A stretch of DNA of 64,000 bases from Nitrosopumilus sp. (lineage in GTDB: Archaea; Thermoproteota; Nitrososphaeria; Nitrososphaerales; Nitrosopumilaceae), in NCBI GenBank assembly GCA_965205675.1, contig OZ242186.1, positions 256,001 through 320,000 on the forward strand, read 5' to 3'. A program made the position numbers and the translations under genes. Of the stretch, positions 353 to 49,819 are shown piece by piece. Within the stretch, counting starts at the first letter, position 1. Each line of letters begins with the position of its first letter. Below the pieces are notes generated by a model. The model saw only the letters and a program-made list of their open reading frames with translations, made no database searches and was not told the origin of the DNA.

Positions 353-429
353 GTAACTGTCTAGAGTTTTGAGAAAAAATCTCTATAATTACGCAAGAGG
401 TCTATTGAGTTACTTTCCCAAGTACTGTT
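353..429. mobile_element. Stack of three isolated IS termini: IS66 TIR (353-372), ISL2-group IS5 TIR (386-404), ISH3-like MITE TIR (405-429)
   Basis: gtaactgtctagagttttga = 40092/47589; taattacgcaagaggtcta = 44532-44550; ttgagttactttcccaagtactgtt = reverse complement of 47329-47353. Confidence 0.88.
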
Positions 430-436
430 TAAGGGT

Positions 437-1279
437 TTATAGCCATTTTTTTTGATAATTTTCTCTTTCCATCTTGAAAAGAAATTGTTGTGCATATCCG
501 GCATATGGGCCAAAATAGTTTACAATTTTTTCATGAAGAATTTCATATTGTTTTTCTGTTATAGTTTTAGTTTCAAGTTGGAATTTATTTGAATAGTATT
601 TTTCTAATATTCTAATCATCCATCTATCTAATGGAAAAGATTCCAATTTGTTTAATGAAAATAATAAAATACAATCAGCAACTTTGTTTCCTATGCCTGA
701 TATTAAACAAAGTTCGTTCTTTGCCTCTTGATAATTAGCTTTTTTCAAGTATTCGAAATCAATTTTTTTTAACATTGTTTTGGTTGCTGCTTCTTTGATA
801 AATCTTGCACGATAACCTACTCCACAATTTTCAATTTCAGTTATTGATGCTCTAGCAAGTTTTTCTGGTTTTGGAAATAAAAAAAACTTCTGATTTTCAA
901 ATCTAACTTTAATCCCAAATTTTTTTGATAAATTTTCCAAACTATTTTTTATTTTTTGAATATTAGAATTTGAGGATACAATAAATGAAATTAGACATTG
1001 GAAAGGATCTTGTTCTAATATTCTCAAACCCACATATTGTTTTACAGCATTTCTGGTAGTTTTATCTTTTGAAATTGATTTGATAATTTTTTCAATATTG
1101 TCTCTTTTTCGAAAAAAATCTATTCTGATATTTTGATGTGATGTAATTTCCCCCATATCATTTATTCTTAAAACATCCTGACCGTTAACCCCATACCAAT
1201 AATCTTCATTTTTTCTCCAAAGAAATACTTGACCACTATTAATCGAATTTTCAACATTTATGGTTTGATTATTTTGCAT
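437..1279 (-). CDS. 8-oxoguanine DNA glycosylase/AP lyase (OGG1-like, HhH-GPD)
   Basis: SGQVFLW N-terminus, QDPFQCLISFIVSSN, GVGYRA, GIGNKVADC, FPLD, GPYAGYAQQFLF motifs. Confidence 0.9.
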   Translation of the reverse strand: MQNNQTINVENSINSGQVFLWRKNEDYWYGVNGQDVLRINDMGEITSHQNIRIDFFRKRDNIEKIIKSISKDKTTRNAVKQYVGLRILEQDPFQCLISFIVSSNSNIQKIKNSLENLSKKFGIKVRFENQKFFLFPKPEKLARASITEIENCGVGYRARFIKEAATKTMLKKIDFEYLKKANYQEAKNELCLISGIGNKVADCILLFSLNKLESFPLDRWMIRILEKYYSNKFQLETKTITEKQYEILHEKIVNYFGPYAGYAQQFLFKMERENYQKKWL

Positions 1280-1280
1280 T

Positions 1281-2546
1281 TTAGATGATTATTTCATCAT
1301 TTACTGCAGGTGAAAATGTTTCAAGACCAAATTTTTCATGAATTTCTCTTGCAAACATTTCACATGATTCTGAGTCGCCATGAACAGTACATACCTTTGG
1401 ATTTCCTTTAATCTGCTTTATCATATCAAATAGCTCTTTTCTATCTGCATGGCCTGAAAATTGAAATTGTTTTACTTGTGCTGTGACATTAAGATCTTTT
1501 CCTCGAGTTGAAACCATTCCTGTATCTAGTAATTTTTTTCCTGGAGTGCCTTCTCCTTGATACGAAACAAGGGCAATCCCATTTTTATTATCAAAAGATA
1601 GTTGTTGCAAATAATATACTGCATTACCTCCTACTAACATTCCAGCTGGAGATATCACTACACAAGGCTCTCCCATCGCTCGTTTTCTTTCAGCGTGTTC
1701 TCTTACTGCCGTTGCACTCTTGATTGCCTCAGAAAAAACTTTAGGATCTCTAAGGTATTCTGGATGTTTAAACATTATCTCATTTACTTTGAGTGCCATT
1801 CCATCCATTATGATTTTATGCTTGAAATTTGAACTTCGTAGAATACAAGCAATTTCTTGTGAACGTTCTACAGAAAATGAAGGAATGAATAATATTCCTT
1901 TTCTATCCATCACCTCATTTGCAAATTCTATTAGTTCTGCCTCTGATTCTTTTCTTGGTTTCTGTTCTGTCTTTGCATAGGTACTTTCAGTAATTAACAA
2001 ATCAATTTCTCCAACATCCAAATCCATCTCTCGAAGCATTCTAGAGCCATTTGTTTTAATATCACCTGTGTAGAAAAGACGTTTTCTCTCTGATTCTACT
2101 AATACTGTACTTCCGCCTATTACATGTCCTGATTCTCTTAACTCAAATGTAGTATTTCCTTTGGTAATTTTCTGTTTAAACCCTACTTCTTTGGCATTTT
2201 TCATCATGTTATTTACTTCTGGTAAATCAAATGGATGTGAATTTTTTTCAATTTTTAGCATATCCTCAATCAATAATTTTGAGAGATCAAATGTTGGTGG
2301 TGTAGCATATACATCTGTATTACCACTTACAAATAGAGATGGGACATTTCCTGAATGATCTAAATGAGCATGAGTAATAATGATTGCATCCAAATCTTTT
2401 GGTTTTACGTGTAGTGGGTATTGTGGAGGAGATCCTCTTCTTCCAAACATTACTCCATAATCCAACAATAATTTAGTTCCATTACAATCAACCAAAAACC
2501 CCGATCTGCCAACCTCGTTTGCAGCTCCTAAAACTTTAACATTCAA
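1281..2546 (-). CDS. Beta-CASP metallo-beta-lactamase ribonuclease (aCPSF-like, no KH domains)
   Basis: GAANEVGRS, HAHLDHSG, SGHVIG, ESTY and FSGHAD motifs. Confidence 0.9.
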   Translation of the reverse strand: MNVKVLGAANEVGRSGFLVDCNGTKLLLDYGVMFGRRGSPPQYPLHVKPKDLDAIIITHAHLDHSGNVPSLFVSGNTDVYATPPTFDLSKLLIEDMLKIEKNSHPFDLPEVNNMMKNAKEVGFKQKITKGNTTFELRESGHVIGGSTVLVESERKRLFYTGDIKTNGSRMLREMDLDVGEIDLLITESTYAKTEQKPRKESEAELIEFANEVMDRKGILFIPSFSVERSQEIACILRSSNFKHKIIMDGMALKVNEIMFKHPEYLRDPKVFSEAIKSATAVREHAERKRAMGEPCVVISPAGMLVGGNAVYYLQQLSFDNKNGIALVSYQGEGTPGKKLLDTGMVSTRGKDLNVTAQVKQFQFSGHADRKELFDMIKQIKGNPKVCTVHGDSESCEMFAREIHEKFGLETFSPAVNDEIII

Positions 2547-2659
2547 GAATTAAAATGAGTTTTCATCCATGTTAAAACCTTCTTAGAGACAAGCCGATCA
2601 TTATGCCTGTGGTGGAATCTACACAAGCTTTAATTAGTGTAAGCTAAGATTCGATCCTC

Positions 2660-2872
2660 ATGGGAAGAAGCTTCCAAGAATGGTTAGGACAACAAGATCA
2701 AGCCGTCGTCGCTAAAACACGTGCTGGTGACGAAGCAAATAAACCACTCCTTAACCAAATTAACTGGATTTGGGTTAACAATCTGATGAATCAGAAAGCA
2801 GACCTTAATCCTTCTTCAGCAGAACTACTTGACTGGGTTACTTCTGGTCAAATAGACGCAATGAGAAAATAA
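2660..2872 (+). CDS. Small hypothetical protein (70 aa)
   Basis: Clean ORF with TATA-like ctttaatt upstream and T-rich terminator downstream. Confidence 0.7.
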   Translation: MGRSFQEWLGQQDQAVVAKTRAGDEANKPLLNQINWIWVNNLMNQKADLNPSSAELLDWVTSGQIDAMRK

Positions 2873-3013
2873 ACGTGGATAACACGTTATCTTTTTGTTT
2901 TTTAATTTTTTCCGATATGGATTCTGCGCATGGATTGTAATCGATCATTTTCATAACAGGGTTATGAATTTCAATCATGGTTTAAATAGGCACTAAGCAA
3001 TCTTAACATTGTA

Positions 3014-3316
3014 ATGCCAATAGCAATACTTCCAGACATTGATGAACAAAGATGTATCGGATGTGCACTATGTGTAGAAATCTGTACAACTCTTGGTCCA
3101 GATGTCCTTAGAGTAAAACCAGTTGAAGGCTGGAAGAGAGGTAAAGCATTTGTCTTTTACCCAGAAAGATGTATTTCTGATGGTGCATGCATCGGTGTAT
3201 GCCCAACAAAATCAATCTTTTGGATGAGACCAATGAATTACACTGCTGGACAACCAGTGCCTCTTCACAAAAACGGTATCTTCATCAAAGGTTGGGCAGA
3301 AGACGCCGCATTATAA
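3014..3316 (+). CDS. 4Fe-4S ferredoxin
   Basis: CIGCALCVEIC and CISDGACIGVCP motifs. Confidence 0.92.
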   Translation: MPIAILPDIDEQRCIGCALCVEICTTLGPDVLRVKPVEGWKRGKAFVFYPERCISDGACIGVCPTKSIFWMRPMNYTAGQPVPLHKNGIFIKGWAEDAAL

Positions 3317-32278: not shown

Positions 32279-32611
32279 ATGAATACAAAAGTACTATTAG
32301 TAGCATCCTTACTTGCTATATTTACTATTGGAATGTATGCAGACAATATTGCAGCATTTGCCCAATACATGGGTAATGTAGGTAGTCAAGGAGAAACAGG
32401 ATCATACACATTAGAAGAAGCACTTGAGATTCAAGCAAGAAGAATCGCAGCAGCTGAAGCAAACCCCTCTTCTGGTTCAGGAACTCCATATCTTGATGCA
32501 GGTGGTGTAGTTGGCGCAGCAGTTATTGCAGGTGCTGTATTCGGTGGCATTGCAGGAGCTTTCTTCCTTAGAGGAAGATCTGGCAAATATGCCGCAATGG
32601 GTAGAGGATAA
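32279..32611 (+). CDS. amoZ: AOA membrane protein, likely AMO accessory subunit AmoZ
   Basis: Signal peptide plus C-terminal TM helix; at the edge of the amo cluster; assignment from recalled topology and synteny, not a search. Confidence 0.55.
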   Translation: MNTKVLLVASLLAIFTIGMYADNIAAFAQYMGNVGSQGETGSYTLEEALEIQARRIAAAEANPSSGSGTPYLDAGGVVGAAVIAGAVFGGIAGAFFLRGRSGKYAAMGRG

Positions 32612-32797
32612 GCAAACCTCACTTTTCTCTTATTTTATTATCTCTTCTTAGTGTAAACTGAATTTATTCAACGATTCTGTGAAGTTATCGGGAGCTAGTG
32701 TTTTTTCTCTAGTTCTTTGATTCTTTTTTCTAGATTCAATAACATATGTCCATGAGCATTAATGTGTCCTCAAACATAGATATAGTATACTTGAAGT

Positions 32798-32929
32798 ATG
32801 AAAGTCAAAACTGCCATATCAATAGATTATGATTTGTTGTCATGGATTGAATCAGAAACAGAATCTGGCAGATTTGCCAATAAATCACATGGTATCTCTT
32901 ACTGTGTAAGAGATCGTGAAATTAACTAA
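32798..32929 (+). CDS. Ribbon-helix-helix (CopG-like) micro-protein, 43 aa
   Basis: MKVKTAISIDYDLLSWIESETESGRFANKSHGISYCVRDREIN; not in the ORF track. Confidence 0.72.
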   Translation: MKVKTAISIDYDLLSWIESETESGRFANKSHGISYCVRDREIN

Positions 32930-32931
32930 AA

Positions 32932-33156
32932 TTATTTTTTAGAGAGTAATTTATCAATCTTAGATTCTAAATTATCTAATTTTGTGCAATTTTGTAAAAC
33001 ATTGTCTTTTAGTATTCCAATATCTGACTTTATTCCAGAAATATCTTCCTTCATCTTTATTATTGTAATATTGTTATTCTGCATTTCTATATTTAAAGAG
33101 TTAAATTTTGTGTCAAAATGGTCTTTAATATCTTTTATTTCACTCATATTGATCAT
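32932..33156 (-). CDS. Small coiled-coil hypothetical protein
   Basis: Heptad-rich (IKSDIGILKD...LESKIDKL). Confidence 0.55.
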   Translation of the reverse strand: MINMSEIKDIKDHFDTKFNSLNIEMQNNNITIIKMKEDISGIKSDIGILKDNVLQNCTKLDNLESKIDKLLSKK

Positions 33157-33200
33157 ATATTCTAGTATATTATTTATCGTTTACTCAAATGGACTTATTT

Positions 33201-34243
33201 TGTACTATACGGAAATTATGTCGCTTATCCATTTGTATCCTCTTCAGCCCAATTGGGGTTATCATCTCTGATCGTTTTTGTGGCAATTCTTGCTTTAAAT
33301 GCATCTAGTGGTCGTTCACCTGCATCAATATCTAGTGAAAAGTGTAGTCTGCGTTCATTGTAATATTTGACATATTCAGACAGACTATCATAGTGAAATA
33401 TCTCTTCTTCAATACTTCTGTGGAATCGTTCTAGCTTGCCATTTGTCTGTGGATGATATGGTCTGGAGTTTATCAACTCAATTCCCATGTCTAGCAATGC
33501 TTCTTCAAAAAGTGTTGGACTCCATGAACCTTTTGGTTTTTTTGATGTCTTCCAACAAAGCATAATCCGTTATCTGAAAGTATTGTAGCAGGGACACCAA
33601 ACTTTTTGACGGCTTTATACAAGACTCGTACTGCATTTTCTGATGTAGCTTGAGTGAATATTTGTGCTGCCATGATACACCTTGAAGAATCATCAAGATA
33701 TGTGACTAGATTCAGCCCTCTAAAGCGCGGGTCCTTCATCATATGCCAATCCACATGCCACATTGCATTGGAATACTTGCGTTCAAATCTTACCCATTTG
33801 CGTTTACGTGATTTTGCAGGGGATGGAATTGATAGATGATTCGCCTTCATTATCTGGTATACTTTATGGTAACTTATAATGTGACCTTTTTCTTTGAGTT
33901 CTTTTGTAAGACGTACTGCACCTATTGGTTGTTCTTTGTGTTTTTGTAATACTAGATTGGTTTGGGTCTCTGATGGTGCTGATGAATGTCTTCCAGGAGT
34001 TTTTTGTACATGTGGTACCACCTGTTTTACGAAATTCTGCCCAAATACGTTGAATATGTCTCTGTGTTACATTCGTTTCATATGCAATTGTAGCTGTTCT
34101 ACGACCTTGTTTACACTGTGCAATGATGTAACGTATTGATTTCTCAGTAAGATATTTCCTCATAATTTTAGATCGATATAGTCTATAGTATTCCTTTACA
34201 CAATGTCTAATCTTAGGACGACCTAATTTTCGTACAATAGACA
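33201..34243 (-). mobile_element. IS481-family element, frameshifted transposase (33225-34163)
   Basis: TGT...ACA ends, 13-bp TSD aatggacttattt (33188-33200 / 34244-34256), WHVDW, LSDNG, PQTNGKLERFH in three frames. Confidence 0.9.
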
Positions 34244-34279
34244 AATGGACTTATTTTTACGATTATTTTATCTCCAGCA

Positions 34280-34368
34280 GGTTTTAGTTCCCAACTTAGA
34301 CGGTCAAACAAGGTCACCTTTCAAGTAACTCGTTTAGGCGTTCATGGGTTCAAATCCCGTTAGACTCA
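34280..34368 (+). tRNA. Degenerate tRNA-like gene: Leu-type body, anticodon loop CTTTCAA (TTC, Glu)
   Basis: T-arm ATGGG-TTCAAAT-CCCGT, long variable arm CGT-TTAG-GCG, GGTCAAA D-loop, imperfect acceptor and D stems. Confidence 0.55.
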
Positions 34369-34482
34369 TCGATATATTTTCTACGAAAATCTACCTACAC
34401 TGTTTGAATCTCCTAGATCCCGATAACTTCACAGAATCTAATAAAGGAAATGTATATATCGCACAAATAGAGCCAAATTATT

Positions 34483-49309: not shown

Positions 49310-49431
49310 GGAGGAGTAATCAAGCCTGGCCAAAGTAAGTACATTGTGCTTTTGGACATGCAGGACTTAAGATCAAATAATGGGTGATCCTGTCTCTCAG
49401 GAGTTCGTGGGTTCAAATCCCACCTCCTCCA
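49310..49431 (+). tRNA. tRNA-Leu(TAA) with two introns (D-arm ~49336-49356; canonical ~49371-49386)
   Basis: Removing both segments restores D-stem ATC/GAT, anticodon arm CAGGA-CTTAAGA-TCCTG and an 85-nt tRNA. Confidence 0.85.
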
Positions 49432-49432
49432 C

Positions 49433-49819
49433 TTATCTTGGATTTTTGATTCCTCTAGCGTTTAGAACTTCATAAACATCTGGTAATGAGAATACAAAAC
49501 CAACATGGACACAATCTTTCTCATCACAGAGCTGACAAAACAATTCGCCTTTTTGAATTGCAACTTCTGCAATTCTATCTTTGATATTGTCTTTTAGAAC
49601 AACACGATCATCATCTACTGAAATCTTTTCAATCTTTGGAGCGTATCTTGCAAAGGTTTTGTCCTTTTGCATCATCTCCTCTAACATGTAAGTTACATAA
49701 CCTGCAAAACTATTGACACCCTTCATTGTTAGGTCATCTTTACTCTTTTGATAAACCTCGTGGAATTTATCATAAACAATTTCTGAAACAGTGATTGATT
49801 TGAATCCAGCTTTTGGCAA
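49433..49819 (-). CDS. Conserved hypothetical protein (RHH-like N-terminus, C-terminal zinc finger)
   Basis: GFKSITVSE; FCQLCDEKDCVH. Confidence 0.75.
   Translation of the reverse strand: MPKAGFKSITVSEIVYDKFHEVYQKSKDDLTMKGVNSFAGYVTYMLEEMMQKDKTFARYAPKIEKISVDDDRVVLKDNIKDRIAEVAIQKGELFCQLCDEKDCVHVGFVFSLPDVYEVLNARGIKNPR

Follow-up and report, generated by a model that had tools for sequence, protein, structure and literature searches.

A relic with IS6-like ends in a Nitrosopumilus genome, probably a transposase-less insertion cassette

We analysed a 64,000-nt stretch of a Nitrosopumilus genome (the window; G000:C1:256001-320000), in which positions 32673-34438 form a candidate transposase-less mobile element of 1,766 bp between inverted termini. 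The source genome (G000) is a single contig of 2.01 Mb with 33.7% G+C. The left terminus (32673-32698, + strand, GATTCTGTGAAGTTATCGGGAGCTAG) and the right terminus (34413-34438, - strand, one mismatch to the left) are each 26 nt long, 25/26 complementary (96%) and separated by 1714 nt. An earlier reading made from the sequence alone had described 26-bp inverted termini with one mismatch, and this description held: the 21-nt core of the termini occurred at exactly two exact sites in the window, and 0 of 100 dinucleotide shuffles matched. Behind the left terminus lies an open reading frame (ORF) of 43 aa (32798-32929, +), tentatively a probable ribbon-helix-helix (RHH) DNA-binding protein, and convergent with it an ORF of 74 aa (32932-33156, -) for a predicted single-helix, coiled-coil-type protein of 71-74 aa with an NC(S/T/K)KLD motif. 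These are followed by a secondary insertion resembling the insertion sequence (IS) family IS481, with a frameshifted transposase (33202-34241, -), between the two copies of an unstranded 16-bp direct repeat (33186-33201 and 34242-34257), and by a decayed fragment derived from tRNA-Leu (34290-34358, +; identified by alignment with tRNA-Leu genes in G000 and its relatives). No homology to IS6-type transposases was found inside 32673-34438, where the sole transposase is that of the later IS481-like insertion.

Both termini contain the TTCTGT core of the IS6 family, and their relatives are widespread in the genus. In the 2.0-Mb source genome the 21-nt core had four sites, against none for a reversed control. 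The two sites outside the window lie at 794072-794097, overlapping the stop codon of a C-terminal stump of an IS6-like transposase, and at 1307274-1307299, after another such stump; the two window ends are closer to each other (25/26) than to these ends, from which they differ at 3-4 positions. With up to three mismatches the 21-mer was found in 11 of 41 genomes of the genus (one match overall for the reversed control), and an 18-mer, GRTTCTGTGAAGTTATCG, was found with up to one mismatch in 33 of 151 (control, 0), reaching 45 sites in genome G081 and 39 in G097. The tips of the window termini are GA, while GG-tipped versions of the 18-nt end predominate in the genus.

In sister genomes the same ends bound elements of 1968-3380 bp that encode transposases of 364-390 aa. 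These proteins bear an N-terminal zinc-finger extension and match Pfam PF13610 (DDE_Tnp_IS240; 1.7e-12) and the NCBIfam IS6 model (119.8 and 93.5 bits, cut-off 125); the IS240/IS6-type transposase is present in elements L085, L088 and L111. Element L085 of genome G055 (373-3046; 2674 bp) is flanked by an 8-bp duplication, CATCTGGG, and combines a fragmented zinc-finger/IS240 transposase with a passenger gene for a 304-aa protein with a CAP12/Pycsar TIR domain (Pfam, 7.1e-18). Extra ORFs in same-end elements looked methylase-like, AbrB-like or like a restriction-type partner, as judged by eye. Passenger genes stand beside the transposase in the 2.2-3.4-kb same-end elements L085, L110, L111, L112, L113 and L115. 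The proposed IS6-like character of the termini is thus upheld, because the same ends bound elements of the genus that have IS6-like transposases and 8-bp duplications.

Family ends also bound units that lack a transposase. Such units of 101-636 bp include some of the size of miniature inverted-repeat transposable elements (MITEs; 315-497 bp), and among 12 pairs of ends a perfect 8-bp duplication was found in two and a near-perfect or offset one in three. Larger cassettes of 1287-1294 bp with IS6-like ends carry only tnpB and no DDE gene (L082 304-1590, L083 328-1615, L084 273-1563 and L118-L135; genomes G081 and G097). Their TnpB scored 121.5 bits with NCBIfam guided_TnpB (cut-off 100) and matched the Pfam Cas12f1-like TNB domain at 1.2e-20; at E<=1e-20 there were 48 TnpB matches in G081 and 17 in G097, of which about 45 and about 15 are near full length. 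Both genomes also hold open IS240-type frames of 343-480 aa. Among the 21 cassette copies examined, 13 had a perfect 8-bp duplication, one had 7/8 and seven had none; in two of these seven the flanks are swapped and reverse-complemented, as after an inversion between copies. One GA-tipped cassette end (L123) still has a perfect 8-bp duplication. Since 13 of 21 cassettes carry perfect duplications, DDE-less cargo cassettes with family ends do move in this genus. The cassettes L132 and L133 (G097:C1:1325208-1326808 and 1451299-1452899) have flanks that are mutually reverse complement, as expected after a ∼126-kb inversion by recombination between copies. A literature search on TnpB with IS6-type ends returned nothing specific, a result that does not imply absence from print because 'IS6' also matches IS605 and IS607.

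We compared the window locus with its relatives around the 89-aa gene downstream of the element; this gene is conserved, with counterparts of 90-100% identity in 52 of 61 genomes. Of 11 related loci, 10 have the flanks of the element separated by 17-75 nt, and the remaining locus (L100) yielded the right flank alone. These empty sites, for which the sequence-only reading had proposed a check, indicate that the window segment is an insertion. Public contigs identical to the window span the left junction (32485-32944, 0 differences), and contigs of an abundant related strain diverge from the window behind 32653 and before 34439. The latter give only a hint of an empty site, with no single contig shown to join both sides. 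In genome G017, a decayed 2.2-kb IS6-like element occupies the same spacer (L116, G017:C1:539351-543895, reverse 101-2340), with a perfect duplication of AATAAAAG and a junction 1 nt from the right junction of the window element. G017 is 83% identical to G000 over 2 kb, compared with 96-97.5% over the right flank for relatives with empty sites. As the closer relatives are empty and G017 is more distant, the two insertions are most simply independent, and by these alignments the spacer upstream of the 89-aa gene is an insertion hot spot.

The secondary insertion was assigned from its copies and its transposase. Window positions 33200-34241 are 99.5% identical to G000 859076-860118 over 1043 nt, and further partial copies match. 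A perfect 16-nt direct repeat lies on both sides. The ORF fragments match Pfam rve/rve_3, and two of them scored better with the NCBIfam IS481 model (109.5 and 64.3 bits) than with IS3 (59.1 and 29.1 bits); since the gene is split, these scores fall short of the cut-off for the whole protein. By comparison with the 859-kb copy, a single missing nucleotide breaks a 280-aa frame, and even the best copy consists of two overlapping frames. With a length of ∼1 kb, an rve-type DDE transposase, several copies and a flanking direct repeat, the insertion has the sequence characters of an IS481-family element, in agreement with the earlier assignment. Subtracting the copy and one copy of the 16-bp repeat leaves 529 + 181 = 710 bp, as had been estimated, with ∼660 bp of passenger DNA between the two 26-nt ends.

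The 43-aa ORF had been described as an RHH gene. It has no match in Pfam, and its match to the NCBIfam ParD antitoxin model TIGR02606 (E 0.008, 16.2 bits) falls below the cut-off of 46.2; only three other homologues were found among 5.8 billion proteins, with 22 invariant positions and with sources labelled Thaumarchaeota. The monomer model was poor (predicted local distance difference test, pLDDT, 61.9), too poor for a fold search. The homodimer model scored 0.49, against 0.00 for the best of three controls; among proteins solved as same-chain pairs, 20 of 30 attain the mark applied to this score, as does one of 23 solved as single chains. The homodimer runs agreed in 100% of contacts with partner pLDDT of at least 82, and the model shows the RHH topology, with antiparallel pairing between residues 3-9 and a C-terminal helix packed across the dimer. 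Because RHH dimers have already been solved, passing the mark may reflect likeness only. The family profile score does not support the description, and on the dimer model only the product is plausibly an RHH DNA-binding protein.

The convergent 74-aa ORF was confirmed on the - strand. In its database form the protein is 71 aa long, with the ATG at 33147 as its start; AlphaFold models it as one long helix (residues 2-70, pLDDT 96.7), and the only Pfam matches were to coiled coils, all sub-threshold. The protein has two close homologues. More distant relatives sharing the NC(S/T/K)KLD motif occur in 6 of 120 other genomes of the genus, and in G018 and G101 they adjoin IS6-like ends or transposase stumps. 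The G018 ORF matches the window protein at E 1e-4 and the G017 homologue at 6e-13. This ORF is preceded by the same 24-nt end and by a short piece similar to the 3' end of a tRNA, arranged as in the window, at a locus that is G+C-rich and not syntenic. By these comparisons the helix protein is a small family recurring beside IS6-like ends. In genome G015 (G015:C14; L075 about 1000-1140), an IS481-like end lies ∼50 nt upstream of a homologue of the helix protein; it is oriented opposite to the IS in the window and is a second, independent hit at the same relative position.

The stretch at 34290-34358 had been taken for a tRNA-like gene. It covers approximately tRNA positions 10-75, with a D arm, a broken anticodon arm, a variable region and a T arm. 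Its best matches in G000 and relatives are tRNA-Leu genes (88-96% over 25-29 nt in the variable region and T arm), and a local alignment to tRNA-Leu spans the D arm through the T arm. The stretch contains a T-arm-like hairpin, has no complementary 5' acceptor strand and shows an unpaired anticodon stem. ARAGORN made no call here with default settings, with and without introns, or in tmRNA mode; when the threshold was lowered to 70-80%, it gave a 'tRNA-Leu(caa)' out of register together with obvious false calls, and this was rejected. At E<=10, Rfam gave no tRNA-clan match to the stretch and five chance matches only. Its fold z-score was +0.49, and 138 of 200 shuffles gave a fold that was as good or better. 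From its sequence, the stretch is a decayed tRNA-Leu pseudogene fragment and not a gene, and the claim of a novel tRNA cargo fails with it. An older, degenerate second end directly after the T arm was also considered and rejected, as its alignment score of 15 was equalled by 171 of 2000 shuffles.

Taken together, 32673-34438 is probably one non-autonomous derivative of the IS6-like family common in the genus, resembling a mobile insertion cassette or a MITE with cargo. Its ends match those of autonomous ISs of the lineage, it has no transposase, and it carries two passenger ORFs with homologues. A zinc-finger DDE (IS240/IS6-type) transposase supplied from elsewhere would have bound both ends and inserted the unit with an 8-bp duplication, by analogy with the other DDE-less cassettes in sister genomes. 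The duplication has since disappeared with ∼25 nt of target, and the unit was struck by an IS481-like element. Among the passengers (the probable RHH protein, the single-helix protein and the dead tRNA-Leu piece), the tRNA-Leu fragment is probably captured host or mobile DNA. Either the transposase was already absent when the unit arrived, or its gene was lost at this site.

Several observations weigh against this interpretation. The window element has no 8-bp duplication (left flank TATTCAAC, right flank TAATAAAG), and ∼25 nt of target that are conserved in relatives are missing from the window. Its tips are GA, whereas GG is named as conserved in the passages on IS6 ends in PMC7986276. The combination of RHH gene, helix gene and tRNA piece has no second copy in G000 or in 120 other genomes of the genus, and the DNA homologues of the RHH gene in G123 and G101 look degenerate, one having lost its start codon and one its N-terminal strand. 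No metagenome contig matched the 21-nt end exactly; a 19-nt core had four matches, mostly within unrelated genes and none with the cargo of the element. The element resembles other family members only over the 24-27-nt ends, and an origin through internal deletion of a defined autonomous IS is therefore not demonstrated. Of the IS6 hallmarks, then, a transposase between the ends and an 8-bp duplication were not found in the window element.

The source genome was also searched for a partner. It contains three PF13610 frames, of which one alone, at 923430-924491, belongs to the same type of transposase; the other two are ∼31% identical to it. The ends of this copy differ from the window ends beyond the first 9 nt, and its gene (923430-924755, -; L007, 922044-925457), the only near-complete one of this type in G000, is split near the N terminus by a ∼121-bp insert with 19-nt inverted repeats, as seen by eye in comparison with the L088 protein. 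Short pieces of this insert recur at seven or more other places in G000, so the insert is MITE-like. No intact cognate transposase was found in G000. Same-end elements with a transposase, a partner of the kind for which the sequence-only reading proposed to look, occur in sister genomes. With no intact cognate transposase and single-copy cargo, the element is probably immobile now. The proposal of a passenger-carrying element mobilised in trans therefore stands as far as a transposase-less insertion is concerned; the missing duplication, the single copy and the lack of an intact partner in G000 leave its mobility a candidate property. The element is a dead relic, of an ordinary kind in a little-studied host group.

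Instead of one unit, the two ends could be leftovers of two IS6-like copies, from a composite or from two hits on the hot spot, whose transposase parts were deleted, with the DNA between them trapped or rearranged. The spacer is a hot spot in which G017 has an independent insertion 1 nt away, and the absent duplication and the ∼25 nt of target missing on the left side would both fit such a history. IS6 elements typically form pseudo-compound structures and adjacent deletions, according to the passages of PMC7986276 on their behaviour, and solo ends and transposase stumps of the sub-type occur elsewhere in G000 (L003 and L004). Against this, the two window ends are alike at 25/26 positions, compared with 3-4 differences from the two remaining G000 ends, the DNA between them revealed no remnant of a transposase, and the interior is not host DNA of the locus, where relatives have only 17-75 nt. 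We consider two separate copies unlikely.

A broader reading arises from the positions of the G000 ends. Three of the four ends of the sub-type in G000 lie less than 300 nt from a T-loop motif of class-II tRNA sequence; ∼3% of G000 lies within 300 nt of such a motif, giving a naive, post-hoc binomial value of ∼1e-4. The three neighbours are the dead tRNA-Leu piece inside the right end of the window element, a tRNA in L003, and a tRNA-Leu(CAA) 87 nt outside the L004 end. The L003 tRNA (1501-1613; G000:C1:1307274-1307386) is a complete but aberrant class-II tRNA with a UAA (Leu) anticodon. It lies directly against the inner side of an IS6-like end, with a transposase stump ∼100 nt upstream of it; further upstream, an IS3-like insertion splits the transposase gene. 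Over its last 27 nt, which comprise the T arm, the 3' acceptor strand and G73, the tRNA is identical to tRNA-Ser(UGA), which it also resembles in the acceptor 5' strand and D arm, and its anticodon arm differs. It is not the sole UAA reader of G000 and could be a missense tRNA or a pseudogene. The association in three of four G000 ends is a hint of IS-mediated capture and reshuffling of tRNA genes. That the IS6-like lineage of the genus is a general cargo vehicle, picking up neighbouring DNA including tRNA genes and moving it as DDE-less cassettes, with the window element as one such capture, seems to us rather doubtful. Outside G000, only one of 112 distinct ends has a T-loop motif within 300 nt, so tRNA targeting as a family-wide rule was not supported, and the proximity seems to reflect events particular to G000, for example capture or recombination.

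It is improbable that the interior is instead what remains of a plasmid or virus, a small integrative element targeting a tRNA-Leu gene, with the tRNA piece as an attachment-site remnant and the IS6-like ends as later, incidental arrivals. Such a history would suit the very few homologues of the small ORFs, the other tRNA-Leu relics in G000 (a 20-nt 3' copy and a pseudogene at 1936040-1936101) and the figure of 57% of thaumarchaeal integrated elements in tRNA genes given in the consulted part of the 2019 survey (PMC6563490). However, the fragment covers the D arm through the T arm but not the 3' acceptor strand usual in attachment-site repeats, the locus has neither an integrase nor a matching tRNA-Leu gene, the empty site of relatives has no tRNA gene, and neither the 43-aa nor the 74-aa ORF matched any of 50,697 phage records. 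Finally, a working RNA gene as cargo (either a tRNA-like RNA or a tRNA whose introns are unusual) is hardly credible: the T-arm hairpin is intact and kept in the centroid fold, and ARAGORN can miss thaumarchaeal tRNAs such as the intron-rich tRNA-Leu(UAA) at 49310-49434, but that gene is still detected by Rfam, unlike the stretch at 34290-34358, which has the missing acceptor strand, unpaired anticodon stem, out-of-register call and shuffle-like fold described above.

Mobile insertion cassettes have IS-type inverted repeats and passenger ORFs and no transposase, which is supplied in trans. The MIC231 cassette of the Bacillus cereus group reportedly belongs to the IS231/IS4 lineage. The unit in the window is likewise bounded by IS-type inverted repeats, transposase-less and equipped with passenger ORFs; it differs from MIC231 in being IS6-like and, as a single copy without a duplication, in having mobility only as a candidate property. 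In the passages of PMC7986276, a review from 2021, that describe the IS6 family, members have 8-bp repeats, ends of 15-20 bp, GG tips and a cTGTt motif. The window element is similar in its TTCTGT core and in the sister-genome elements with the same ends, 8-bp duplications and DDE_Tnp_IS240/NCBIfam IS6-type transposases, whose zinc-finger extension resembles the long clades h and i among the zinc-finger transposase clades described in those passages. It differs in its 26-nt ends, its GA tips and the absence of a transposase and a duplication, and the best same-end transposase (119.8 bits) falls just under the NCBIfam cut-off of 125. The same source describes two IS6 MITEs (227 and 336 bp) and one passenger-carrying member, ISDsp3. 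The MITEs it lists are likewise non-autonomous and have no ORFs, in contrast to the window element, and ISDsp3 is likewise a cargo-bearing IS6 derivative, which keeps its transposase, whereas the window element has none.

The element had been put forward as a type not yet described. This does not hold, as transposase-less cargo cassettes, MITEs and passenger-carrying ISs are already known kinds, the IS6 examples being those in the cited passages of PMC7986276. Those passages name archaeal IS6 members from Halobacteria, Thermococcales, Methanococcales and Sulfolobales, and Thaumarchaeota are not named in them. A survey of thaumarchaeal mobile elements from 2019 counted 244 ISs in 13 families and, in the part consulted, reported passenger-carrying composite transposons as undetected in archaea, thaumarchaea included (PMC6563490); the IS6-like family of the genus may already be in the supplementary IS lists of that survey. 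The relic itself changes little, and the family context is more valuable. The same ends bound a TIR-domain gene of defence type, methylase-like genes (by eye), small regulators and TnpB genes that have reached dozens of copies, with 8-bp duplications of the DDE type. This places a gene for an RNA-guided nuclease outside its usual IS200/IS605 or IS607 setting. The family is a concrete, testable system for the trans-mobilisation of cargo by an archaeal IS6-like transposase.

Several tRNA-related sequences were found along the way. The likely tRNA-Leu(UAA) of the window (49310-49434, +) has two intervening sequences; it was missed by ARAGORN and found by similarity to tRNA-Leu, and Rfam detects it through its acceptor and T stems (tRNA clan, 24.6 bits). 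The 20-nt relic in G000 (G000:C1:208577-208596) exactly duplicates the 3' end of tRNA-Leu(UAG), whose gene is 8.3 kb away at 216886-216971; the copy may mark the boundary of an integrated element. The pseudogene at G000:C1:1936040-1936101 is a tRNA-Leu(UAG) without an anticodon loop. Three paralogous class-II-like genes of 83-89 nt, labelled 'tRNA-Phe(GAA)' by ARAGORN, lie at G000:C1:1261574-1261656 (-), 1794331-1794418 (+) and 1858414-1858502 (+); they have long variable arms, with 8-bp acceptor stems and conserved flanks in two of the three. A gene similar to these paralogues lies 690 nt inside an IS6-like end in genome G124 (L087 3049-3137).

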